Assembly: GCF_006345805.1 (NCBI RefSeq) | Contig: NW_021831739.1 | Location: forward strand, 1 to 39,606 | Reading direction: 5' to 3' | Length of the DNA: 39,606 nucleotides | Source of the DNA: Octopus sinensis | Taxonomy: Eukaryota | Part shown: in pieces, positions 585-39,318 of the stretch | Layout of the letters: each line of letters begins with the position of its first letter | Position numbering within the stretch: position 1 is the first letter of the stretch | Notes under the pieces: model-generated | Told to the model about the DNA's origin: nothing | Database searches by the model: none | What the model saw: only the letters and a program-made list of their open reading frames with translations | Program-made: the position numbers and the translations under genes

Positions 585-2042
585 TGATAAGAAATAGGTT
601 AGATATGAATAGCTTAATTCAAATATATTATTAGTTTTTTAAAATAGCCAAACAAAAAATAAACCATTAAATAGCAATAAAATAAATAATTTTTTAATGT
701 TTTAGGAAATCTGCAATTTCTTCGTTCTTTCGATCCCATTGATCACGACAAATCTTGTACAGCACAGGAAACAATAAGAGTTATTAGTTTGGTCCATTTT
801 CTTTTATCTAAGCGACGTCCCGTAAACATCAAAATCGTCCTGTCCATAACTCTTTCCCTACACTCCGAAGGTCTCTATCTATTATCTATATCGGGGGTGT
901 CAAAAATACGGCCCGCGGGCCAGAGCTGGCCCGCAGTATAAGTTTAACAGTGTATTTAAATTCTAAAATTATTATTTAACACCAAATAAAAATACAAGAA
1001 TCTAGATTCTAGAATATAAATAAAAATAAAAAAATTATTACTTAAAAAATAATTAATTGTTTTTTGGATTTATATTATTCTAATTGTTTTTCTTGTCTTG
1101 TGCTGATGTCTTTTTCAACAAAACGCAAAGTTGATACAGAATGCAGATCTTTTCAAAAAAAGTGGAAACTGGAATATTTCTTTGCCGATTTAAATCGGAA
1201 ACCTACTTGTTTGGTCTGTAGACAAGAAATTTCAGTTGTCAAAGAATATAACATTCGACGACATTACCAAACCCACCATGCTCATGAATACAATAATTTG
1301 ATGGGAAAAATTAGAAAAGAGAAGTACGATGCACTACTTGCATGTTTGCGGAATCAGCAATCTTCTTTTTCCAAATTTCGAGATGATAGTGAGGCAGCTG
1401 TCAAAGCTAGCTACGTTATTTCTCGGGAAATAGCGTTAGCATCAAAACCTTATTTTTATAAAAACATGTATTATGAAAGCTACTGAAATCATATGTCCTA
1501 TTAATCGGCCTGATTTCGCAAGCATTAGCCTTACAAGAAATACTGTGGCAAATAGGATTTCAGATCTTTCCACTGATTTGCACAATCAACTCAAGACGAA
1601 AATTAGTTCATTCATTACCTTTTCCATTGCTATTGACGAGAGCACTGACATTATGGATGTGGTTCAGTTAGCTATATTCATTCGTGGTGTGGACGAGAAT
1701 TTGACGGTCACAGAGGAGTTCCTTGATATGATACCTATGCTGGACACTACTACGGCAAATGATATATTCAAATCTCTCGTCAGTGTGTTGGATAACTTTG
1801 GAGTGGAATGGGCACGTGCTGTTAGTGTGGCTACAGATGGTGCTCCATCAATGATTGGAAAAAAAACTGGCGTTGTGGCTCAATTCAGAGAGAAGGTACA
1901 GGCTGTAAATGGAGGATGTGATTTTTGGATATTTCACTGCATTGTGCATCAGGAGGTACTGTGCACCAAATCGTTAAAAATGGACCATGTAATGGAGGTG
2001 GTCGTCCGGACAGTAAATTTTATCCGTGCCAGAGGTCTATAT

Positions 2043-4289
2043 CAGGGTTTCTCAAGTTTTTTAACGTCGGGGCCAAATCGATAATTAACCATTGTCTTCG
2101 GGGCCGCAGAATAAATTAAATTAAAACTTTCATTAACTTTTAACTAATTTTTTTTTAGATTCATTTTTTATTCAGAAACCGAGATAGTTAGTCTTAATTA
2201 ATTAAAGGAAAATGACTAAAACGAAAAATTGTTAACTAAAACGAAAAATTGTTAGCTATTTTAACTAATTGTTAACTAATTTGTCATAACACGGAATATA
2301 GGAGGCACATGTAGATCGCAAAAGCTGGCATAAGTGATTATCAGTCAATTTATTTCGATATTTATTTTTTATGTGAATCATTTTACTGAAAATTGACTCA
2401 CATAAATAAGTGGATCCGAACATTGAAGCATATTTATAAGCATTTATGAGTATATTCGGATATTTTTCTTTGGGAAGTGAACTATAAAATTCCATTAAAT
2501 TTTCAATCTTTTGCACTGAGGTAAATTGCACATCTGATTGAAGGTCTATCAATTCTAATTGGAGTGATGGCGGAGCATTCTTAGGATCTATATTGAATGG
2601 TGCTGCAAAAATTTTCATTGATGGCAAAATTTCATCAAAATTCTTAAAATAAACTAAATTTTAATAAACCTTAGAACGTTTTTCAAATTCAACAATAAGG
2701 TGACTGATAATGGTAGTATATTTTTCAAATGAACCGTTAGCTTTATTTTCACTCAAACAAGTAAAATGAATTGTATCTTTGAGCATTATTTGATCCCTCC
2801 AAAGTTTTAATTTTGATATAAAAGAAGCAATAGATCCATAGAGTTGATGGCAAAATTTATATTTCCCCTGTAATTCACAATTTAACGACGATAAATGAGA
2901 GGTTAGATCTACCCAAAAAGCTAAATCGGCAATCCACTCTTTACTGCTCAACAAATCATGGTATTTGTGGTCTTTAACAAATTCTCTTATTTGAGGGAGT
3001 AGTTCATAAAATCTAACTTCTATTCAAGCAAATATACCTTTTGAGGCACGCGGCACGACTCAACCATCGAACAGTGGTATGGTAAAGCACATCATTATGC
3101 ACTGTGTCAATTTCCACTAACATTTTTTTAAATCTCCTGTGATTGAGAGATTTACCGCGTATCCAATTCACAATGGACAACACCGTACTTATTACATTTT
3201 GCATTTTAAGTGACTTTGCGATTATATTCTCCTGATGAATGATACAATGTTGCCAAAATATAGGATCAAGATTTTTTTCAAGTCTCCATTCTGAATAAAG
3301 TCCATGAAACCCTTTATTACGACCAATCATATTCGCCCCCCCATCAGTACATATGGAAATTATTTTGGAAGGATCAATGTCAAATTCTTTAATACTTTCA
3401 AGGAATTCGTTAAGTACATCCATTCCTTTTGTAGTGCCTTTTAATGAACGAAGAGAAAAAAATTCTTCAGAAATTTTAAAATCCGAAGTGACACCTCTAA
3501 TGCATACGACCATTTGTTCGGTATCAGAGATATCTTTACTCGTGTCGACAGCAAAAGAATGATATAAAAAATCTTTCGATGTTCTATAAAAATTATTTTT
3601 AATAGTAAAGAACTTGATTAGCTGACGGGCAAGGTCCTCAAAAATACATTCTATTCTTCTTGTAATAGTATCATTACTTAATGGTAATCGTTTTGCAATA
3701 TTTTGTATATTTGACGGACAACATTCATCACAAAAAATGGAAATAGCAGTTTTAATAATTTCTCCGTCAGAATAAGGTTTCATATTTACAGCAAGAAGGT
3801 GGCTAATTTTATAAGACGTTAATAACTGATGCTTATTTTCCACTGGTTTAAATATTGAGGACTGATTTTTAAATGACGTCTTTAATATATTGAGTTTTTT
3901 TTTCCTTGACTCTCCGAGATATAAATTGTATATTTCGGAGTGCTTCTTATAATGACGTTCAATAGTATAATTTTTCAATGAATTAATGACACAGTTGCAT
4001 ATCAAACAAACAGCTTTACCATTCAGTTCAACGAAAAAAAACTTTTCTTCCCATTCAATTTGAAATTCTCTATTTTCTTGAGATAATGTTCGATATTTCT
4101 TTGATGGCATGAAAAAATACTCAACCTGAAATATATTTACAAACACGTGTAGTTAAAATATTATCTTTAATAATATTAATTTACAATTAATTTTATATCC
4201 AAAATTTATTTTAAAGTTTGGAAGTCGGGGCCGCAAAAAAGATTCTCGGGGCCGCATGCGGCCCCGAGGGCCGCACTTGAGAACCCCTG
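2043..4289 (-). mobile_element. hAT (Buster-type) DNA transposon, nested and apparently complete
   Basis: TIRs CAGGGTTTCTCAAGT and ACTTGAGAACCCCTG (14/15 match). 8-bp TSD GTCTATAT (2035-2042) / GTCTATAC (4290-4297). Subterminal GGGCCGCA repeats. Confidence 0.96.
2265..4110 (-). CDS. Intact four-exon hAT transposase, 587 aa after splicing
   Basis: GT-AG introns at 3584-3613 (30 nt), 3013-3037 (25 nt) and 2643-2669 (27 nt). 1846 - 82 = 1764 nt, open from ATG 4110 to TAG 2265. BED finger, VDTS, TDGG, CIIH, RWLS and YLCESIFS all present. Confidence 0.9.
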
Positions 4290-5504
4290 GTCTATACCAC
4301 CGTCAATTTGACAATTTTCTGAGTGATATTGGTTTTACTCACGGACTACCATATCATTCCGAGGTAAGGTGGTTAAGTTGAGGTTTGGTATTGAAGAGAT
4401 TTTTCGATTTAAGAGAAGAAATCAAACACTCCATGTTTGCAAAAAACAAACCTTTACCAGAATTGGAATCTCTTAATTGGTTGATAGACTTGACATTTTT
4501 GGTGGATATTACAGAACACCTGAACACGCTTAACAAAAATTTGCAAGGACGAAATAAAGTTGTTACACAATATTTCGAATGCACACAAGCTTTCACCATG
4601 AAGCTAATGTTATGGGAGACACAATTGACAGTGGGAAACACTGAGCATTTTTCTTGTTTAAAAAGTGTAATTTCCATCACATCGAATGTTGATGTGAGTC
4701 GCTATAAAGTGAAAATAACAGGATTACTTCAACAGTTTGAGACACGTTTTGAAATTTTTCGTGAACTTGAAAAGGAATTTACTGTTTTTCGATCACCATT
4801 CGCTGCAAATATTACACATCTTGCAGCTAACTTACAATTGGAAATTATTGATTTGAAATCTGACTTAGATCTGAAGAATAAATTTACCATTGTGGGCTTA
4901 GACACCTTTTATAAATTTCTCTTGCCGAAGTACTTCAACTTAACAGCCTTAGCTGCGAAAATCTTGTCAATGTTTGGAAATACATATCTATGTGAACAAC
5001 TTTTTTCTTTAATCAACATAAACAAAACAAAATTTCGATCAAGGCTCACCCACACTCATCTGAGTGAGATTCTAAGATTGACGGTAACTCAGGATTTCAC
5101 TCCAGATATTGACGCTATTATGAAGAAAAAAAGATGTCAAGTTTCTGGAACATATTTTAATTATAAAAATTAATAAATGTGTTGTTAAATGATTTTAAAT
5201 TAAAATTATAAATTAAAAATCATAGTACGAATTTTGTTAAATCAAAAATAAATAGTCTGGCCCGCGGAGCCTAAAATTTTTTAAATCCGGCCCGCGGGCT
5301 ATTGTCTTGCCTGAAAGTATTGTCTTGCCTGCTTTCAAAAACAGCAAAATTAACAAATATTGATTCCGACGATTCAAACCCTGATTTTTATTTAACATTA
5401 ATGCCTATTACCATGGTATCTGTTTTTTCTTTGTTTCCGGTCCCCATCTGTTTTGAATTTCCAAGTTACACACTTGTAACATGTTTTTAATCATTATCTC
5501 TTCA

Positions 5505-16488: not shown

Positions 16489-17964
16489 ATTGGTCTCCCA
16501 TGTTCTATATATAAGGACACACAATAAACACGATGTATTAAATTTTATTTAATGATTTATTTTATTTTTTAGTTTTATTGATATTTTGAATTAATTAGTT
16601 ACTTGAATTTTACTTGTTCACAATTTATTATAATTTTTATTTTTAAAATTACAAAATTAAAAATTGTTTTATTGTAAATAATTATAAAAGTAATCCCACT
16701 ATATAGACTACGAGATATCAACTAATTTTACGGCTGTAAAATGCGAAATTTGTAATCAATAAGTTTAAATTTATTTAACCTGGTAATTTAGTTAGAGGCA
16801 CCCTATTTTTTAACTAAAAAGTTTTAATCTTTACTTTTCTGTTCGATGCCGTCCTTTTGTCATTAAAAATGGACTACTGTTTGACCATTCAGAAGAATTT
16901 ATTCTTAATAGACCATCAAGACCAAGTTTACGATAAAAATCAAATTTTGAATTTTTGCAATAATAGAAAAATAAACTGTTAAAGCACAAATACTAAAACT
17001 ATTTCATTTATTTTTATCTGTTCAATTTAAAACTGGCCGATAGTGTTAATTTGCTAATAAACAAGTATGTAGTAGCATCTACTAAAGAAGAACATTGACA
17101 TTGTGCATTTTTTACTTTATCAAAACCGTGGTTATTTGTTGACAGAAAGTGACAATTTTTGACCTAATAAATAATCGTTTTTATTGAATTAAATTATTTT
17201 TAAATGTGAAAAATCAAAAATATATAAAAGCAATTTTTTTAATTCTTATGGGAAAATATATACATTAATCTTATTTTACTTATACCTTCAATAAAAAACC
17301 TAATCTGTCATAAGAATTAAAAAAATTCTACAATTTTCAAAAAAGTGTTTCAGATATAAAAGATTAAATGTTCTACAGACAACTTTAATGCGGACTCAGA
17401 TTTCTTTGCTATTCACATAAACATAGTCGGATGTATTAAGTCTGAATCTTAAAACATCACGGAAAAGGCAAAGAAAAAGTAGAATTATAGTTAAAACGTC
17501 TGAAAAGTAATTCTCTATTCAAGAAGTAAAGATTTACCACAAAAGCAATAATTTAGTCGAATTATAGCTTTAAAATGTTTTAAATCTAACGATATCCCAT
17601 AGATGTAATTTACTTAAAAGTCCTGAAAGTTGGTCTCCTTGAATAGAATTTACCACTAATATAAACCGATATCATTATTTCAGTCAATTTTTAACCCAAG
17701 ATGTAACTACCTCAAAGAATTAGACCTGTCTCGGTTGAGTGCATCACAAAAGTAGTCGTCAAACTAGACTAGCCGTTGTTTAAACAAGCTGCCAAAATTT
17801 TCGGATGATTAGCTAGGGAAATGGTACCCCGAGTGTCACACCACATTGAGACTGCTCGTGGAGCACGCCCAGCTGACTGTCAGTTCAAACTAGAAGAGGA
17901 ATGCCCTCATAATAAAGGTTGGACAAGTTACATTTACTAGAAAAAGATGCCAGTAATATGCCTC

Positions 17965-18905
17965 TTAGCAGAACTGGAGTTGAATAAAAATGTGAACCTT
18001 CCAGCGAGCACCACAAACATTGCAAAGACAGAAGGTGGTCATTGACTCGTCTGCACTCCGTGTCTGCAGTTGGTTGTACAACACGTCGCTTTATTTGCAC
18101 TTGCCCCACTTAATTTGGGTGGTGTGTGTCCCCGTGGTCACCGCCAACTGAGATTTGTTGATGGAGTTCTTCGTCAATTGGGCCACCAGGGATTTCAACT
18201 CGTCGTTGGCCATTTCCTGCGGATTAGAGAATGAACAACCTCGGTGGTCATGTTGGCGAACTTGGCGGGGGAAATGACCATCGACACGACATTCCTCCGC
18301 AGTTCGGGGTTGTTGGGGTCCTTCAAATTAATGACACGACTCAGAATTCGTGTTTTGTAGCCCCAATCAGTCCGCGACTTGTGGTTGACAAAGATTTGTG
18401 AATGAGTGAGTTAAGGAGACTACAGGAGAAGGTGGGAATATAAAAAAGAAAATCCTCCTCGATCATTGCCGCAATGTCCTCCCAATGGGGTTCCCGCACA
18501 GTCCCCCCGCACTCAGGGCATCCAGCAGCATTGACCTACACTTAATCCGAGTTGGGTCGTCGGTGGGGGACACATACAGTCGGCCGGGTTGCATCTCCTT
18601 TGCTGGTTCGGAGTTAAAATGCTTCTTCCATTTCTGAATCAATGACTTTGAGAGCGACGAAATCACCCCATTTGCCGACTTTTTCCGGATCTTATTCACA
18701 GTCAGGCCAATTTTAGTTTTCTGTGAGTAGTCAATTAGGGGCATACGGCCAAAATGTCAAGGGTGAGTGCCAGTCCTTTCAATTGCCTCAGCAGAATGAT
18801 TATGCCTCCGTCGTCCTGCTATTATTATTCCACCAAACCATCACGCCATCCTCCATTAATGCATCCAACTCCTTCTTGACACTGAGGACAAAAGTTGTTT
18901 TTGTT
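17965..18905 (-). pseudogene. TCEA: Transcription elongation factor TFIIS, nearly full length but damaged
   Basis: [32 protein letters not shown]...CGARWK-FC*. Introns 18816-18838, 18721-18746, 18398-18453 (AT-AC), 18217-18239 and 17974-17997. Lesions: frameshift at about 18490, Cys>Trp and TAA in the Zn ribbon (KWGKCK*), DEP>DES, no clear ATG. Confidence 0.92.
18398..18453 (-). other. U12-type (minor spliceosome) AT-AC intron
   Basis: 5' ATTTTCTTT (consensus ATATCCTTT, two mismatches). Perfect branch site TCCTTAAC ends 12 nt before the terminal CAC. Removal restores IEE-E-IF in frame. Confidence 0.75.
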
Positions 18906-21900
18906 TTGACTTAAACTTAGAAAAAAAATTAAATGCGCTATTTTTTTAATAAAAGGCATTAAAATCTTACAGAAAATAGATTTGGGTGCTCGATATTTTT
19001 GAGAGCACTAATCCCGATAGTTCCGTATATTAATTCAGCATTGTGCAGTCTTCATTCCAAGAGTGGAGAATCAGCCGTGCTGCGGATAGCTAAACAGTTT
19101 CCTCAGTGTGATCCTCTTGAAGAACCACACAGTTTCCCTCCTAGGTGTTTTAATCATCCTTTCAAGGGTCCCAATGACACTACTCGTCTCGAAGTGGGAC
19201 GAATTCAAAAACGACGTGTACTCGGATTCCTGAATGTGCCGAATATACCACATGGAAAAATTACTTTCTGAGAAAAATCGAGTTTACTGGATTGTGAATT
19301 GTTTGGAGAAATGCCCAGATTTGTTGTACCCTGAATATAAAGAGAGTTAAGCGATTCTTGCACAAACTGTCCTAACCTACAACAGAAAACATTCCAGATC
19401 AACGACTTGCCATATAAGTAGTTAAGTGATTCTAACAATTCTTTGAAAGAAACAGGAAGGAGTTTACTTCTTCAGGAAGGGTTTTAATATTGCATATTCT
19501 CGCCACATTTCAAAGCAAGTTCCCTTCCACCTGTGTCTTAATGCTTATTATCTGCTTGAAATGAGTTCCTTTCACACATACCAACATGATAGAATACTGG
19601 TTCAGAGAGAGTACACAAGGAAACTGGATGAATAACTGATAATAGTGCAAACAAGAGAGATCTGAGGAGATTAAAGAAGCGGCACCTCCTCGGACAAATA
19701 ATCTATCGAAAATGGTGTTAGTAGGAAATGGTCCAATAAAACGCAGTACTTCTTTGTAACGAATTTCTCGGCTTGATGACGATGACTACATTGTACAATT
19801 GTTTTCCCAGAAACTGACAATGAACTGGCGTTTATTTTATATTTTCCTGCAGGAACAAAATATCTCATTAAGGGAGGTGAGGCATAAAGAGAACAGTTTG
19901 TGGTATTTCGGACGATTGACGCTGGCGATATAATTGGATTAAAGTTCGAGCATAACGCACAAGACAATTAATGTACCTTTACTATGCTTGGCTGTTCGGA
20001 TCCGTCCTCGCCCTAGCTGTGCTGTGCGGAGGATGTTTTTTACTTCGGTCAGTCTAACCAATTGCATGTTCTAGTAAAAAGTATCCCCTCCACTCAGACA
20101 CAGTGATACATCGCACCAATAAAATCAACATAAAAAATAGCCGTTCCAACAGCAAACACTCCGCAATTGGGAGAAGTAATTTCAGGAAAATAACTCCAGT
20201 CAATTGGGAGGTCTGATCAGATAATTATAATAATGATTTACCTTTTGAGTAAAGTCGCGCTGGAATATGATTGTGTTTTTAATAATAATAAAAATAGAAA
20301 AAAAGCCGTGTCACTGACAGACCGGTAGAAAGTGGCAGCATTTGCTTGTTCTTGTGCATCATTGGCTTTTAACACTACATCACTCAGCATAAAAACGAAA
20401 TCTTCTAATTTGCGGACTACTTGTTTATAGAACTTGGCCAAAATAACCAAAATATCAAAAATTGCAGCATTAAAATAAATTAGTCAAAAGATAAATAGAG
20501 GACTATTTATTCAAAAAGTCACGGTACAGCAATGGATATAATGGTTGGATGGGGAAATAGAGAACCCGTCAAAATGGTTGTCACAGGTAACCGAGAGGCA
20601 ACCAAGACAAAAGGAACCAGGACGCAGAAACATGAAATGGAACTCACACTGAGCGGAAGAATGAGGCTCGACTATAACCCGAACTGTGGCATTCCCAAAA
20701 CAAAAATATTGCCTGTAGAATAGGACACGCAATGCATACCTCATACGTCCACGATCTACAGATACGACGACGGTGGCCGTCCTGTGGGAACTATTATAAA
20801 GAAGACAGCCGACGGGCACAATGCAAGACCTGCCAGTAGTCAGTCATCTCAACTTGGACACGTTAAAATCGTGATTGACAATAGGGGGACTTATGACCTC
20901 AACTTTGAGGGGAGGAACATCATTAGTGGAGGGGGGATTATGTAATTCTGGCCAACAATGTCAATCCCGTCTTTTAAGGCCTACAAATAGTAGTGGCCGA
21001 ATACTTTCCATTGAATAGTGAGCAATTCCACTCGAGTACTCCCAACTCTCGGATGTATGACTTGCAATCAATGCTTTCGACCATTCCAACTTTGGGGAGT
21101 TGATTAGGTTGAAATAGAGGACCATCGACAAGGACTGTCCCCTGGATACACTCCGAACAGGACACACAACACGATCCAGTTTCAAACAGTGTGAATAACA
21201 CATAACCGAACATGGTGTGTACACAAACTAGTATGCAGCCAACCAGAATACTAAAAACAAGGGGACATCCACTTGGACGACAACAACACATTGGGGGGAG
21301 TCGACATATGACAGACAAGTTTGGAATACACACTGGACAGGAGATGGACTTTGACGACAATACACGAAGTGCGGATTCAAATACTAAATAATACTTAGCA
21401 ATTGACTAACGATTAGATTATAACGATAAGAGGCAATTTAGAGAACTCAGGATAGAGCAATGTCCCAGAAGATAAGGTCGATATTGTTTTATATTTCACA
21501 GATAAAACTTTATTGGTCTCTTTTAAGTCGTCGTCAAGTTGTGGAGAATGCAGTGAGAAGGCCATCTGATTGTAGTGATGCCTTTTTCCACTATAAAAAT
21601 GGATTTGTAGACGATGAGGTGACCAAGGTTGATGATTTGTAGATGGATTGTTCTGATGTAGTGGTAATTAGGCGAATTCAGCGGATTTTGAATAACACAG
21701 CTCATTCTCTCCGTTTACAGATAACGAACAATGAAGGTATGTGTGGATGTGAGTATAAGACAGTTCGGAGAATTGAAAATTTGGCACAGGATGTCCTCAA
21801 TGACTTGGGAGATGGGCTAATCCCGCTCGAAGAATATTTGAACAGCAGGAAAATTGAACAACTCAGTAGATTTTGTATATTTCAGTTATAAAGAAGGGGT

Positions 21901-26679: not shown

Positions 26680-27400
26680 GCTTCATCATCGGCATAAATC
26701 GCTTCTTCTATTTTTCCAGTTCCTACATAGCGATCTCCAAGTATATTGTGAATAGTAGCGGTGACAGGGAGTCTCCCTGAGGAGTGCCTGTGTTTATTTC
26801 AAATTTCCCTGAGTATCTTTTTCCAACTCTCACAAGGAGATCTGTGTTAGATAGAAGAATTTGGGTCATTCTTAGACTCAATTCGTCAATAATCCCTTCC
26901 ACTACTGTCATCAGTTTGCTCCTGTTAACCGAGTCGAAGGCTTTTGATAGATCTAATTCCAGAATGTGGATGGCATTGCAATATCTTTGATGTGTCGCAC
27001 ATCTCTATTTGTAAATCCATTCTACATCAGCTTTTGATCTTCCTTCTCTGAACACACCTCGACTTTCGGGTAGTTATTCATGGGAAGGTCCTATTATTCG
27101 TTCCAATACAATGCTATCTAAGACTTTCCGTAGAGAATTTGATAATATAATTGGTCGTAGGTTTTCAACCGGTCCGTTGGGTTTATTTGGTTTTGGTATA
27201 GCTATTAGTATTCTTGTCCCCAGGTGTAAAGTTGAGTTAGTTGAAAACATTCATTTAGTAGTATAGCGATTTTTTGAAAAAGGGAGTAAGGACCATATTT
27301 TGAATTCTGGGTTTATTGTATCTAGTCCAGGGCTTTTGTCATTTTTTAGTTTTTAAAATGCTGTTTTTAATTCCAAAATTGTAATTAGTTCCTTTATGGG
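26680..27400 (-). mobile_element. RTE-like LINE reverse transcriptase fragment
   Basis: KSPGLD, IPKPNKP..NLRPI, DLSKAFDSV, GTPQGDSLSPLLF and IYADD, with stops and frameshifts. Confidence 0.88.
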
Positions 27401-29379: not shown

Positions 29380-31003
29380 AATTTGTTTTAAATGAAAATT
29401 CAAACTAATTGATAAATCAGTCAGCTGTTGAAGAGCAATGATTTATAAGGTCAATGTAATAGGCCAATTTATTTTGTACATCAATTAATAACAATTAAAT
29501 TTAACTAAAATTGTTTTTTTGAGCCATTCCTTAGCTCTCTAACTGCAATCTCTTGTCGACCATCACCAATCCGATCCTCACTCCAGGATTGTTGTTCCAT
29601 GGGCACGATTCCGTCGTCCTCAAATTGTCGTAGAGATTTTCGTTGTAGAAAATGAATGACTTCACTAACATCACTCTCTTGAAAGTTCATCCCATGTCGG
29701 TGCTTCACTAACATGCTTTCAAGAGTTTTCTTTAGTACAATAGATTGAATATATGCCCTCGGAATAATATCCACACCCAAAGAATCCATATATGATTTGT
29801 AGAATTTACTCACAATTCCCTCCCAAGTCATAACAATAGGGACAATTTTAACTTTCGCTTTGTATATTTGGGACAACTCTCCAGCGAGGAGGTCGTATTT
29901 ATGAAGTTTTTCAACCTCAACCACCTTAAGCATCTCCTGAGAAGTGATTCCGACCTCTACTAAAGTAATCTCCCTTGTCCTTTTATCGAAAACAAATATG
30001 TCCGGCTTGTTATGTTGTACTTTGATGTCTGTCATCAGCGTCGTATCGACTCTGATCTCAACATTCTCAGTTGTTACTATTGATTGGACTGAGTGAGTCT
30101 TCAGTTTCTTTGAATATGTGATTCCATATTTACGACACAGGTTTAAATGAAGACATCTCACCACCTCATTGTGACGGCGTATATAGGGTTTTCGGATCAA
30201 TATAATAATTTTTAAATTCAAAGAAAAAAAGATCAAAAAGAGTAAATTATCGTAAATATGCCGAATGTCCAGCTTTACTTCTTCCTCGAGAAGGTCTTGT
30301 AACGACCTTAAAGCCAACTTCATCCAAAAATATTAAAGCTTTATCATTATGCAAAGCTTCCAAATTTTTGAAATCTGTTGCATATTGTCTTCTGCTTTCT
30401 ATAGTTGAAACTGAGTTTCTTCTTTCTGGTATTAATGTAACTCTTTTAAGAGTATAATGAAAAGAATTTAAAGCCTTGGCGACGGTGTCCAGTGATAATT
30501 TTAAATTAAATTTGAAAAATATCCATTCGCTCAAATCCTTCAAAGATCTGGTGCAATCTTCATCAACATATTCAACTTATTCTTGTTTCATTTCGTCTGT
30601 TAGCTTAGACCTTCTATCTCCACCACGTTTAGATGGAATAACTTTCCCCGTTTAACTTTTTCAAAATACTGTTAACGGTTTGATATTTCTTGTCGAACAG
30701 TTGAGCAATATCTTTGGTTGAATATCCATCCAAAGATTTGTTTATTATACTTTCTCTCACATCATTAGATATTATTTGTCGGCGAACAATCGCTGGTTCG
30801 ATTGAATATTCAGAAGCATTTTGATTATGTAAATCCATTAACAGTAAATTCAGATCAATAAAATTTAAATTTTATTTAATTTAAAAATTATTTTGGTTCG
30901 AAAAGTTATTATATTGGTTCGAAAAATTATTATATTGATCCGAAAACCCTATATAATCACTATTTAACATTCTATTGCATCTCGTTGCCAAATGATCGAA
31001 AGG
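29380..31003 (-). mobile_element. R4/NeSL-like RLE non-LTR retrotransposon, 5'-truncated, split by a Tc1-like element
   Basis: DHLATRCNRMLNSDY (30955-31003) joins IRRHNEVV...KPDIFVFDK...EVGIT...KLHKYDLL (PD-(D/E)xK-type endonuclease) once 30184-30951 and one TA are removed. 3' boundary approximate. Confidence 0.88.
30184..30951 (-). mobile_element. IS630-Tc1-mariner transposon, internally deleted
   Basis: About 28-bp perfect TIRs TAGGGTTTTCGGATCAATATAATAATTTTT, TA TSD, and roughly 20-nt subterminal repeats at 30880-30945. HTH region, KRGG and IFLDEVGF present; rest of the DDE domain absent. Confidence 0.92.
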
Positions 31004-33559: not shown

Positions 33560-34110
33560 TTTTTTGCATACGCGCGATCACTCTGCGTCAATTGCAAAAA
33601 AAGCAACAAACAATTGACCATCTAGCCAAGCGGTGTGGTAGGATGCTAAACAGTGATTATCTCCGAAGACATAATAAGGTAGTTAAGTGTATTCATCTTC
33701 ACTTATGTCGAATGTATGGAATTGAAAGAACATTTAGTTGTGTCAATAATTTCGACCCAAAATGTCGAAAACAGAGTTGACAGGTCAATTATGACTGAAA
33801 GGAAAATCCAATTCAATAAACCTGACATTTTTATACATAACAAGAGGAAAAAAGAAATAAATTTAATCGAAGTGGGGATTACTTCACAAGATTGTTTAAA
33901 GCAAATTGAAATTATGAAATTTCACAAATACGATCTGCTTGTAAACGAACTATCGATCCTCTATGAAGCAAAAGTAAAGATTATTCCATTTGTCTTGACA
34001 TGGGATGGAGTTGTCTCAAAATTCTGTAAAAATCACATGGACAAGTTATCCATTGAAGAAGGAACTAGAACATACATTCAGTCGCTTGTGCTGAAAAGAA
34101 CGCTCTAGAG
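33560..34110 (+). mobile_element. R4/NeSL-like RLE retrotransposon fragment, truncated by the hAT at 34111
   Basis: CVNC...DHLAKRC (CCHC), RRHN, KPDIF, EVGIT, KYDLL and KRTLE. Confidence 0.88.
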
Positions 34111-36200
34111 CAGTGGTTCTTAACCTTTTCTAAGTCAACTCACCCTTTTGACACAATTTTGAAGTTTCAAAATTTCAGCGCCCCTTATTATCTAATTTAT
34201 TTTTTTAATTATAGATTTATTTAGGAATTTTTTTGACATTTGTCTCATTTTAATATTATCAAATATTACTTATTATTTTTAAGAATTAAAAAGAATATTC
34301 ATAAAAAACTTTTTTTTATTTAAAAATTTTGATGACTGCTTATGCCTGATTATCGATCGCTGCATATAACAAATTTTTGAACATTTGGAGGTTAAGGAAA
34401 CTGAATAAAAAGACAAAACTAAAGATAACACGTTCATTGTTCCTGTCTCGACGTATAACGGATCGATATGGAGAATCACGAAAGCTGATATGAACAGTTT
34501 GAACCAATTTCATCGAAATCAACTGAGAAGAATTACGAACATACAATTCCCAAGAAAAATATCTAACTCGACCTTATACAACAGATCTAACTCGAGACCG
34601 ATCTCCATGGACATCCTGGAATCCAGATGGAGACTTTTTGGGCACATATTGAGACTGGACAACCTCGCTCCGCCGAACATCACCATGGAAAACTATTTTG
34701 CCCAATCCAAAGGAGCTTTCCGTGGAAGACCTAGAGTCACTCTACGAAGACTTGACAGGAGTAAACAAAAGACTGAAAAGTGGGGACGATCTTGATTCAT
34801 TACGGACTATACCAAAGAACAGGGGGCATGGAAACGGATGTGTGTGAGGATACTGGCTGTGGCACAAGGAAAACTTAATTAAATTTATGATTTTCCGACA
34901 GTGCTATATAATAATTGTGCCTGATGAGAATTTGTTGGTTTCTTTATGTCAGCTTCACTATTTGACAGATTAAGTCTCAAATCTTCTTTATTCACAATTT
35001 GAAATTTATTTATTTTTTGGTCAAAATATTGGGGACTGCACTAGATCCTCTTTCAACTAGATATGTTGAAGGAAATCCTATTATGAGCGTTTCAACTTCA
35101 TTCCACTATTGAGGATATTTTTCTTCTAGTAATCCAGAATTGTTGAAATCCAAGTTTGTTGAAAATAATTTTAGCTTCAATGTCATATTTCAGATTTAAT
35201 AAATTTTATATTATTGCTTGAGATAAATTAACGATTTCAGTTTCAAATGGATTTATGTATCAATCAAAAAATTTTAAATTTGTTCGAAGCAAATTTTCAT
35301 GTCGTTTCTTAATTTTTTTTAGATGCAAACAAAAGCATTCGCAGTCCGAATCCGTCAATTTATCGACCTGATAAATATTGCTACAAAAAATAACCCCAAA
35401 TTTTTGTAGACTTAGAAAATTGATAAAAATCTTTTTCTTAATATTCTTTTCATACAGATGTAATTTTTGAATAAAATGCATGATAATTCCATTTTCATTT
35501 GTTAAATTAATATTGTTTCCCTGCAAGCTAATATTTACTTCATTAATTTTATGAAAAATATCTGCTAGATAAGCTATATCAGCTTTCAATAAAATCAATT
35601 TACTAAAACGATAAAGTAATAATAATTGCCTAAAAATTCTCTGCTCATGTAAATGACAAAATTCTAAAATTGAATGATACAATTGAAAAAATCGACGCAA
35701 ACAGTTTCCTTTTTAAAGCCATCTAAGATGGCTATGTAAAAGAAGTCGTTCATAATGCTCATCGTTTTGTTCACAAATAAACTCCAACCATCGCAGGTGC
35801 GCCATCTGTTGAACAAGCAGTAATATTGCTAAGGGGTATTTCATGTCTCCAGAAATATTGTTCAACAGTTTTATAAATTGTTAACCCTCTTGTTCCGAGT
35901 TCAATGTGTTCAGAAAATAAGAATTCTTCTCAAATTACATCATTTTGATTAATAAAACGTACGTAAATTAATACAAGTGCAACAATATCGGTAAATGTCG
36001 ATTCATCAATTTGAATTGAAAATTTTGTTGTTCTTAAAAATGCACAGATCTTAAGATTATTTAGCATTCTTGAGGGCTTCATTCCTTTATTTGTAAAGAC
36101 CTTTTTATACATGAGACACATAGGAAGTGAATTGTTATGGTTGTAAGGTATCATTCCAAACTTTAGATATTCACTCGAATATATTTTTATCAGACATCTA
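34111..36200 (-). mobile_element. hAT (Buster/Charlie, SCAND3/ZBED5-like) element, decayed; only one TIR retained
   Basis: TIR CAGTGGTTCTTAACCTTTT follows CTCTAGAG (nnnTAnnn). Motifs YLKFG, MKPSR, IDEST, TDGAPAMVG, RWL, IAYLADIF and terminal HQAQ. Large internal deletions. Confidence 0.88.
34430..34882 (+). mobile_element. RTE-like LINE 3' fragment inserted in the hAT
   Basis: FHRNQLRRI...RWRLFGHILRL...RGRPRVTL. Confidence 0.85.
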
Positions 36201-36233
36201 TAAAATATTAAATACAATTCACTCGAATATATT

Positions 36234-36410
36234 CCTCGGTATCCTCATTGCTCGGAAGAAAATGGATGCTCGCGAGTCCTCTTGGTTGAGGCAGAGGATC
36301 TCGCTCGCAATCGTGCGCGGGAAAGCGCAAGCAATCCGTTCGGCTGGGCTATAACCCCATGACTTCAATTATTATTTGAATATTAATTTGTTCAATTGTT
36401 AAAAAAAATT
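36234..36410 (+). mobile_element. CRE-like 3' tail
   Basis: DARESSWLRQRISLAIVRGKAQAIRSAGL* followed by an A-run at about 36400. No TSD found. Confidence 0.75.
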
Positions 36411-36539
36411 AACAAATATTTATTAATATTATCAGTAAATTTTTTGTTTAAGTACACACAAGACAATTTTAATTTAAAATTAATGGAAAAGAACGTGATA
36501 TTGATTTACAAAAACTAATACAAATATTTATAATAATTA

Positions 36540-36712
36540 AAAAAATAAAATTCCAGCGCCTACGTTCAGAAATCTTGTTCACCAGGCGTCTCCATCGGGG
36601 TCTGCTTTGAGCATATACTCGTAGGTCTTCAAGGTCGTCAGCACATCCAAGTTTTCTTCCAATTCCGTTAAGATCCTTGTTTAGTGCAACAGGGAGAGTG
36701 ACCCTGGGGCTT
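36540..36712 (-). mobile_element. RTE-like LINE extreme 3' fragment
   Basis: PRVTLPVALNKDL...DDLEDLRVYAQSRPRWRRLV, homologous to the end of 34430-34882. Confidence 0.7.
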
Positions 36713-38111
36713 CATATGAACGTTTCACTAAGTCCTACCACTTTTAATTTGTAGTACTGCCATTCTGTCATCAACCCTCCACACTCTGTAAATTCTCCCA
36801 TCAAGACAACGATGGATAGCAAAGGTAGGTCAGTAGTGATTGAATTCGGAGTTTAGAAGTAGATGTTGAATCGTGCAAATAGTGACTCAGTATGATTTAA
36901 AGTCTTTTATTAGATTCGTCCTTTTTTCTTTAAGCCTCGAACGTTGAATTACCCCAAAGTGAACAGATTATTCGAAACGTGTAAAAAAGACATGACTTTA
37001 GGAATCACGTCACCGTTTAACCAATAAATAATTCTTAGTTAAAGACTTCCGAGACTGACTTCCGGCGTCTTTGGCTCCGGGACCCTCACTTCCCTAAAGA
37101 AATTGGGACATCTTTGTTCTTCGCGGTCCAAGGACCCTAGGGAATTTACTTTCCTCATTCAGAGGATCCTGCTGGCTGTCATGCGTGGCAACAGCTGTTC
37201 CCTCCGTCTCGCTGGGAGAATTTATTAGTTTGTTGACTTTACTTAGTAGTATTACAATTTTTGAAATCAATTCTTAGTTAAATAATTTAAAATAGAATTT
37301 ACAAAAAAACGTTAAAAAAGAAATAAATTATTTATCTAGTGATTTTTGAAATGTTAGTTTTACTTATATCGTTTTCACTTACAACTATGCACATAAGTAA
37401 GTTTAATGATGAAATTTGTTAGGTTTGATGATTTAGGAAAATAAAACAATTACAAATGACCCAAATTGCTTTAATTTAACAGGTAAGAATTTCCAAATAA
37501 AATATTGTTTTTAGAAGTATACGAAGAAGTATATGCTAATCGTTATAAATTTGCAACAAGATTTTGTGGATATACATAATATCACAATTACTACAGTGGT
37601 TTGGAATTTTTCAAATATAATATAGAATTTCCACACGCAAATTTTTATATTAAAGAGAATGGAAACAAGCAGGCTTGCTTTCAGAGAAAAGATTATGGAT
37701 ATTCACTTGAGAGTTTTATATTAATGGTTGATATTTTGAATTTATAATTTAAAGATGAGACATGAACTTGATTATGAATATACGTATCCCAACAAAACAG
37801 TCGATCTAGAAGATGTTAATGATTTTTCTTTCACCTATTGGCTATTCCCAAATAAAGATGCTATTTCTTTCGGTATTTTATATAAGATTAAATCTAGATT
37901 TTCCTTACGTTCTTAAAGAATTCGAGATAATTTACTATCAAAACAATTTTTTCAATTTCCACTTAAAAACAAAAATAAATGAATTTAGTTCGGCTCGTAT
38001 TTGTACTAATATCGACAACTACACTCGTTGTGAAAATATCGAAAACAGTTTCATATTTGTAATATGATTTTTAGATACTGTTTCTATTCAATCATGGAAT
38101 TTAAAATTAGA

Positions 38112-39318
38112 GACCAAAAGACAACCCGGCGTCCTACAGGCCAATATCTCTCCTCTGCGTCCTTTCCAAAGTTCTGGAAAAACTTATACTCAACCACATC
38201 AAACAATATCTCCCGGATTTGGACTTTCAACATGGATTTAAATGTGGTAATCAACCACCTCGCACCTTGTCACTTTGACGAACTTCATCTCAGATGGACT
38301 ATCTACCAAACCATATAATCAAAAAACGGTTATGTGCTCAGTGGATATCCATAAGGCTTTTGACTCCGTTCCAAAAAATACTGACCAGAAAATATACCTT
38401 AGTGGAATTCACCCAAGACTGAAAATGTGGCTAGCTAACTTCCTCAGCGGCTGAAGAGGCAGAATCCAACAAAACAATACAAGATCGATGTCTCGATACT
38501 TTCCAAACGGGGTCCCTCAAGGCTCCCCCCTTTCACCAGCCCTGTTCAACTTATTCTTATCGGATCTACCGCTACCAAACGACAAAGACTCAATCATTTT
38601 ATCATACGCTGACGATATCGTAATTGCTACCCGGAGCCGTGAGGTGAACACGGCGAGTACAAAACTGCAGAACCACCTTAATAATCTCGAAAGTTGGCTC
38701 TCGCTAAACCGACTATCAACGAGTTCGGAAAAATCGGTCACCACGCTTATGACCTCAGCAAGGAAGCTTGGGAAAACGGTGGTGAACCTGTACCTAAATA
38801 ACATGGAAATCCCGTTTCAAAAATCTTAGAAAATCCTCGGGGTGACTTACGACAGTCATATGTGTTTCTCTCAACAAGTCGATAATATTACTACGAGGTG
38901 CATGAAGAAACTGAACATCTTGAAAGTGTTTCTTCGTAAATGCAGACAGTGTATCAGCTTCCCCGCACTACAAGCCTTATACCGGCAATTCATCGAACCC
39001 TCCCTTAGCTATGCTTGTGAGGCGTGGGAGGGTTTATCAGTGGAACGAACCGCGCTAAAATCGAGAAAACTCAAGATCGCTTCCGAAAAGCACTGCAGGG
39101 ACCGAACGAACATCTACTCATCGCCCCATTTAATGAAATCTTGAGAAGAAACCTCGGGGCTACAGGGCCTAAAACACCACCACCGCGCCCTCACAGAATT
39201 GTGCCGGGACAAGGGAGGAGCAGCCGGCAAAGTTGAGGACCCTCCTCAGAGAAGCCGTCACCTGATTAATTAGTTTGATGTTTTGGACGGTGATCTTGGT
39301 TCTAATAATAATAATAAT
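38112..39318 (+). mobile_element. I/Jockey-group LINE, 5'-truncated RT pseudogene with (TAA)n tail
   Basis: SYRPISLL, QHGF, DIHKAFDSV, GVPQGSPLSP, YADD and KILGV motifs. (TAA)n at 39303-39320. 14-bp TSD AATTTAAAATTAGA at 38098-38111 and 39319-39332. Confidence 0.92.

Follow-up and report, generated by a model that had tools for sequence, protein, structure and literature searches.

A Compact AT-AC Intron in a Decayed TFIIS Copy and Evidence for a Retained Minor Spliceosome in a Putative Dicyemid Co-assembled with Octopus sinensis

The window analysed here, 39,606 nt of the Octopus sinensis assembly GCF_006345805.1 (contig NW_021831739.1, positions 1 to 39,606), carries on its minus strand a copy of a TFIIS (TCEA) gene in which a 56-nt intron with AT and AC ends lies among GT-AG introns of 20-26 nt. 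The explanation that best accounts for the data as a whole, and that we hold to be probable, is that of an ancestral minor (U12-type) intron in a decayed TFIIS duplicate, from a lineage that would have retained a compact minor spliceosome likely requiring a spacing of about 43 nt or more between donor and branch site. Judged from its sequence, the contig stems from an animal with micro-introns, whose DNA was assembled together with that of a large host, and not from the assembly's main organism; the two are referred to below as the parasite and the host.

The AT-AC Intron and Its Class

A preliminary description of this DNA had reported an AT...AC intron of 56 nt, with an exact branch site 12 nt from its 3' end, whose removal restores IEE-E-IF, and all of this is seen at 18453-18398 of the minus strand. 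Excision joins GAG G to AA ATC TTT (E-E-E-I-F), and the 12 nt that follow the branch site TCCTTAAC place the branch-site adenosine 13 nt from the intron end, inside the range of roughly 10-20 nt that marks minor introns. The GT-AG neighbours had been put at 23-26 nt, which holds for three of the four (26, 23, and 24 nt) but not for the first, which measures 20 nt, or 26 nt via a GT at 18844.

A DNA search found two further TFIIS copies of about 96% identity, on contigs C6303 (41243-42337) and C9883, each with an open frame of 263 amino acids and a perfect donor, ATATCCTTT. In the intact copy the junction left by AT-AC removal is gapless against six animal TFIIS homologues, and retention of the intron stops translation at residue 176 of 263. 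No AG end used with the minor donor gives an in-frame product there, and the in-frame GT/GC-AG alternatives all cost 12-13 conserved residues. The branch site is predicted to pair with U12 of the parasite at -11.5 kcal/mol; the motif TCCTT[AG]AC occurs six times across the window and is not decisive alone. Chance is ruled out as the source of the match by the perfect donor in two intact copies together with the identical position of the intron in the host and in human TCEA1-3. Donor (RTATCCTTT in the intact copies), branch site, restoration of the frame, and conserved position are all those of a U12-type intron, an already-known conserved minor intron and an ordinary member of its class. Taken jointly, this class and the decay of the window's donor within a pseudogene appear almost certain.

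Decay of the Window Copy

The Pfam domains Med26, TFIIS_M, and Zn_ribbon_TFIIS are matched on exons of the intact gene. Compared with the intact copies, the window copy is a pseudogene: it carries several disabling lesions (Table 1) and differs by 31 substitutions in 917 nt, of which 23 are exonic (17 nonsynonymous and 6 synonymous), in agreement with the 22% synonymous changes expected under neutrality.

Its minor donor, ATTTTCTTT, is mismatched at two positions, for which either pseudogene decay or a divergent pairing of U11 and U6atac had been proposed. Because the intact copies carry the perfect donor ATATCCTTT, we ascribe the mismatches to decay; predicted pairing with U11 is -3.3 kcal/mol for the decayed donor versus -7.4 kcal/mol for the intact one, and the window copy is likely no longer efficiently spliced. 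Both substitutions within the minor intron fall in the donor, which has a P of about 0.035 under uniform decay and so speaks for a divergent pairing code of the lineage; substitutions cluster elsewhere in the window copy too (6 close pairs versus 2.9 expected). The 5' end of U11, AAAAAGGG, and the AAGGAGA box of U6atac are canonical, as are the donors of the intact copies and of six other genes, and the window copy is broken both upstream and downstream of the intron. A divergent code therefore has a negligible chance of being right and, barring a second, variant U11, is already refuted.

The lesions might instead be assembly errors, and the copy an intact allele or the orthologue of another species, given that the contig is small and unplaced and that several of the indels lie in low-complexity runs. 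Against this stand the number of substitutions with their neutral synonymous share, the stop codon, the lost zinc ligand, the 99-nt deletion, and a 3.5-kb block with different flanks, and we regard it as highly unlikely.

An Ancient Intron Position

TFIIS of the host, on C23, has the donor ATATCCTTT at a site that agrees with the parasite intron in both codon and phase. In human, TCEA1, TCEA2, and TCEA3 are listed as carrying minor introns, the exons ending in AAG, AAT, and ATC, according to the portions of PMC6717393 available. Of these ends, AAG and AAT agree with IEE-A and IEE-C when the human TCEA proteins are aligned, at the same codon and in phase 1. The third exon end, ATC, we take to be paired with IED-H. 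Since codon and phase are shared by host TFIIS and human TCEA1-3, the parasite intron is, by its position, ancestral. TFIIS genes had been named in the preliminary description as classic carriers of AT-AC introns. Human and mouse TCEA1-3 also resemble the parasite in donor (ATATCCT) and branch site (TCCTTAA or CCTTGAC), but the human introns span 438-3,511 nt, as against 56 nt in the parasite with neighbours of 20-26 nt (PMC6717393, in the same portions), and the window copy, unlike these genes, is a pseudogene.

The host intron itself (L121:828-1501) is 674 nt long, and its frame demands AT-AA rather than AT-AC ends.

A second TFIIS paralogue of the parasite (C6303, about 627 kb, minus strand; L118) lacks the minor intron exactly, its frame reading through IEEQIF, yet has four micro-introns in corresponding places (28, 25, 23, and 23 nt, by eye). 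Within this one family the minor intron is seen intact, decayed, and precisely lost.

Origin of the Contig

The assembly comprises 2.7 Gb, with 30 large chromosomes belonging to the host. The 4-mer profile of the window correlates with that of C6303 at r 0.95, versus 0.53 with host loci. Over the first 690 kb of C6303, GT and YAG are overrepresented at spacings of 22-26 nt (the reversed control being noisy), much like the ultra-short introns of dicyemids and myxobolids. This contig encodes ligand-gated ion channels, from which we take the parasite to be an animal, and a protein search with TFIIS gave animal TFIIS as best matches. Protein searches did not find a same-species TFIIS product, the best match of one being 67% identical and the other giving none. 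CpG ratios near 0.9 in most host loci, together with the length of the host's ribosomal RNAs (2.6 kb, below), led us to reject a vertebrate-like host.

A small-subunit (SSU) ribosomal RNA (rRNA) of 1,667 nt lies on C1618, beside host SSU rRNAs of 2.6 kb. Against the published dicyemid primers R2 and F3 it has 0 and 2 mismatches, whereas six host SSU loci have 7-9. The parasite is very likely a dicyemid, as these features of its sequence, set beside published dicyemid primers and intron lengths, suggest, and one that would live in a cephalopod host. The ion-channel genes and the match to the primers led us to discard Myxozoa and Blastocystis as sources. One point weighs against the assignment: except for U12, the contigs bearing small nuclear RNA (snRNA) and rRNA genes are tied to the window by composition only. 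Those bearing the snRNA and SNRNP25 genes match C6303 in 4-mers at r 0.75-0.89, better than they match host DNA.

Introns of Dicyema sp. have a median of 27 nt, about two thirds being shorter than 30 nt, in a repeat-rich genome of about 37% GC (PMC6543705, PMC6736024, PMC13644364, in their available parts). The dicyemid and myxobolid papers treat major-type splicing only, in that the text at hand contains neither "U11" nor "minor" in PMC6543705 and neither "AT-AC" nor "spliceosom" in PMC6736024. No report of minor splicing in dicyemids was found in the literature available, though such introns could be mentioned in Ogino et al. 2010 or in supplementary files of the dicyemid genome papers.

Components of the Minor Spliceosome

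The Rfam cut-offs are 39 bits for U11, 53 for U12, 33 for U6atac, and 53 for U4atac. Genes for U11 (C1794, 63.2 bits), U12 (56 bits, on C6303, the contig of the intact TFIIS gene), and U6atac (C8703, 51.7 bits) score above them. U4atac was missed in the genome-wide Rfam search and was found with a pattern complementary to the parasite U6atac, to which it is predicted to bind at -22.7 kcal/mol (mean of 300 shuffles -6.9, best -21.4). The four parasite snRNAs measure 118, 128, 111, and 87 nt, versus 134, 150, 132, and 116 nt in the host, and are only 70-77% identical to their host counterparts. Pairing boxes are kept in all four and Sm-type sites in U11, U12, and U4atac, as is the U12 loop CCUACUUU, which we take to be the site bound by 65K. 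Among minor-specific proteins, a SNRNP25 (25K) gene on C8594 gives PF18036 matches of 25.7 and 23.2 bits, split by micro-introns.

The suggestion that this lineage has, or had, a minor spliceosome is borne out by the snRNA genes, SNRNP25, and six further minor-intron genes on contigs of the same organism; a lack of minor snRNAs, minor-specific proteins, and other minor introns was looked for and is not what the genome gives. Of the parts proposed for a search, U11, U12, and U6atac were recovered clearly and U4atac with a weak score, and SNRNP48 was matched on host chromosomes only. We consider it highly probable, from genome sequence, that the minor spliceosome of the parasite works.

Several observations weigh against this conclusion. 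Splicing and snRNA expression are here predicted from genomic DNA. PDCD7 and CENATAC, like SNRNP48, were matched on host chromosomes only, in exon-by-exon searches that are weak on micro-exons. U4atac scores 35.3 bits (E 0.007), below its cut-off, though with a full-length model match, an Sm site, and three copies; duplex energies favour no cognate pairs over host-parasite cross pairs; and U6atac is without its usual long 3' region. The minor machinery might then be recently dead or vestigial, its AT-AC, AT-AG, and GT-AT introns being cut by a tolerant major spliceosome, a reading favoured by the three of four minor-specific proteins not found, the U6atac of just 87 nt, the frequency of non-canonical intron ends, and a predicted GT-TG major-type intron in SNRNP25. 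Yet the four snRNA genes keep their pairing boxes, three of them also Sm-type sites, despite their divergence from the host; all seven intact donors keep RTATCCTTT, whereas the pseudogene donor has decayed; and exon-by-exon protein searches lose power on micro-exons. A dead or vestigial machinery is in our view improbable beside a working one.

Some features of these genes and of their host counterparts may be added. For the last intron of SNRNP25 (C8594; L130), the best reading gives GT-TG ends and a length of 29 nt. The parasite U6atac (L059:4486-4572) has two small 3' hairpins and GGC where the AGC triad is expected; GGC presumably also occurs in plants. A second copy (L060:5136-5247) comprises the 5' half only, and the host chromosomes give at least 38 U6atac-like matches, versus a few for U11, U12, and U4atac. 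In human U6atac, part of the 3' end (nt 91-109) is reported as dispensable in the available text of PMC4980772. The host SNRNP48-like gene (L115:430-1743, minus strand) is a single open frame of 437 amino acids. Parasite matches to zf-U11-48K belong to a two-finger gene, presumably GTSF1-like, and not to SNRNP48.

A Census of Minor Introns

The census used nine donor-plus-branch patterns on the contigs outside the 30 large chromosomes, and its counts are a lower bound. Matches fell on 50 such contigs, 49 of which were examined; nine were parasite-like, and seven of the nine lie in coding context, in TFIIS (two contigs), a MyTH4-like gene, HSBP1, MCTS1, phospholipase C, and ALG8. In a relaxed scan, 1.09 Mb yielded 24 pairs of donor and branch site, versus 14 in the reversed control. 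It contributed one more gene, GGPS1-like, in which the exon join agrees with human GGPS1 numbering without a gap. Matches on C8150 and C12597 were rejected as chance, and those on C9332 and C11636, being ambiguous, were dropped. Among short candidates of the relaxed scan, 10 of 11 were viewed and none was credible; five of the six of mid-length were viewed or already known, and six more were long. Patterns with spacers from 0 nt gave no credible match on parasite contigs. Genome-wide pattern totals are of the same order as the reversed controls, and counts alone show nothing; a loose pattern with 292 matches was uninformative, all 100 of the matches listed lying on host chromosomes.

The minor-type introns of the seven genes measure 51, 52, 52 (or 58), 55, 56, 57, and 61 nt. 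Their branch-site adenosine lies 43-54 nt from the donor, and each retains an extra 26-37 nt of low-information spacer, the donor, branch site, and tail requiring only about 25-30 nt. Ends are non-canonical in three of the seven: GT-AT in MCTS1 (two copies) and in the 52-nt intron of ALG8, and AT-AG in phospholipase C (or AT-AC at 58 nt) (loci L185, L186, L214, and L194). HSBP1, MCTS1, ALG8, and PLCB/PLCD also carry minor introns in human, and a comparison made at the level of exon ends shows these to be compatible with those found here. The GGPS1-like and MyTH4/RhoGAP-like families were absent from the human minor-intron list searched; the latter label is our assumption, the exon tested having no Pfam match. 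Of 17 major introns in the two TFIIS paralogues, SNRNP25, MCTS1, and HSBP1 (4 measured and 13 read by eye), 16 are 20-31 nt long and one is 58 nt.

A Probable Size Floor for Minor Introns

Donor and branch site are recognised jointly by U11 and U12, which act as one particle. U5 and the majority of later-stage proteins are common to both spliceosomes, so that a difference in intron length points to the recognition step. The human donor-to-branch limit is about 45 nt (PMC12081236, in the part available). The seven lengths fall within a 10-nt window whose lower edge matches that limit, and on the simplest reading the particle cannot span less. In the established pathway, U11 would pair with the donor ATATCCTTT and U12 with the branch site TCCTTAAC, together as a single U11/U12 particle, and U6atac, brought with U4atac, would then displace U11. 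Genome-wide deletion pressure would have shrunk the major introns to 20-31 nt, the major spliceosome having adapted to introns of about 25 nt. Minor introns may have stopped shrinking just above the spacing needed by the bridging particle, about 43 nt or more from donor to branch site, and those below it may have been lost or converted. We regard a size floor for minor introns as likely but unproven, and lean towards the spacing requirement as the cause of their length.

The earlier proposal that U11/U12 recognition sets a larger minimum intron size fits all seven introns, but the fit is correlational and the rule is not universal. In Blastocystis the median length of minor introns is 39 nt, beside 30 nt for major introns (PMC5608401, PMC10639083, in the available text), and for that reason a floor cannot be general. 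Also on the negative side, one MCTS1 major intron is 58 nt (by eye), a length that therefore occurs among major introns, and the seven introns come from a motif search biased towards strong consensus sites. The minor spliceosome could work without any mechanical floor, the introns being longer on account of longer signals or a slower history of deletion, or short degenerate ones having been missed by the search. The small sample of seven and the Blastocystis median speak for this, as does the finding that in other heavy-loss lineages minor introns exceed major ones at sizes far above any steric limit. It fails to account for the spacer kept by all seven beyond what their signals need, the patterns searched allowed spacers as short as 0 nt, and seven draws from the Dicyema intron pool would all reach 51 nt or more with a chance below (1/3)^7; we judge it unlikely, though less so than a dead machinery, and continue to prefer a spacing floor.

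More tentatively, dicyemids may have a stripped-down minor spliceosome, its snRNAs smaller than those of the host by 12-25% and its U6atac reduced to 87 nt, which perhaps lacks 48K, 59K, and CENATAC and tolerates AT-AC, AT-AG, and GT-AT ends. Such a machinery would remain subject to the classical donor-to-branch limit of about 45 nt, which the major spliceosome would have broken. If so, minimal intron size would be set by two rulers in one nucleus, and whatever permits introns of 20 nt would lie in parts found only in the major spliceosome.

Comparison with Known Systems

Blastocystis ST1 resembles the parasite in its major introns of about 30 nt and its retained, AT-AC-rich minor splicing, and differs in being a stramenopile with hundreds of minor introns, of median 39 nt, and seven of seven proteins found (available parts of PMC5608401 and PMC10639083); the parasite has few minor introns, of 51-61 nt, and one of four proteins found. 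[quoted passage not shown] As far as the accessible parts of that survey go, introns shorter than 30 nt were left out and Dicyema is absent from the species list of its supplement.

Larue and Roy raise the question, in the portion available, of selection against short minor introns in settings of minor-intron loss. For the factors that determine minimal spliceable intron size, the parasite, with major introns of about 25 nt and minor introns of 51-61 nt in the same genes, brings an internal control. The finding would extend the record of minor-spliceosome retention by one phylum. Its interest comes from the setting: the retained minor spliceosome is compact, a size floor is likely, and the lineage belongs to the pair whose introns are the shortest among animals.

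Other Features of the Window and Related Contigs

The features located in this analysis are collected in Table 1.

Table 1. Coordinates of predicted features, in window positions unless a locus is named
Feature	Position	Strand	Basis or remark
Pseudogene copy of TFIIS (TCEA)	17965..18889	-	About 96% identity to intact copies on C6303 and C9883; Pfam domains of intact copy
Predicted U12-type AT-AC intron, 56 nt, phase 1	18398..18453	-	Conserved site in host TFIIS and human TCEA1-3
Minor branch site TCCTTAAC	18410..18417	-	Exact match; branch A predicted at intron nucleotide 43
Decayed minor donor ATTTTCTTT (differs at +3 and +5 from the intact ATATCCTTT)	18445..18453	-	Copy comparison
GT-AG micro-intron 1, 20 nt (26 nt with upstream GT at 18844)	18819..18838	-	Second paralogue has an intron near the same site
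GT-AG micro-intron 2, 26 nt	18721..18746	-	Exon joins
GT-AG micro-intron 4, 23 nt	18217..18239	-	Exon joins
GT-AG micro-intron 5, 24 nt (26 nt in intact copies)	17974..17997	-	Copy comparison
Breakpoint of 99-nt deletion, start codon lost	18889..18890	-	Copy comparison
2-nt insertion (18510-18509); frameshift ends at TGA 18465-18463, upstream of minor intron	18463..18510	-	Copy comparison
Lesions in the zinc ribbon (Cys225Trp, Gln230stop)	18091..18108	-	Copy comparison
3.5-kb segmental duplicate (about 95%) of C6303:41243-46764, carrying the pseudogene	17874..21378	.	DNA comparison
Minor-type intron, GGPS1-like gene	L273:7437-7491	-	Relaxed scan
Minor-type intron, MyTH4/RhoGAP-like gene	L016:1501-1557		Pattern search

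Contig C9883 resembles rearranged pieces of C6303, and the two have in common a tandem array of about 169 bp (C9883:9484-12704 and C6303:287.9-290.9 kb). Much of the window is filled by repeat-type coding fragments (1046-5173, 26723-27004, 29505-30576, and 33683-39144), which from their motifs we take to be transposase-like and reverse-transcriptase-like.
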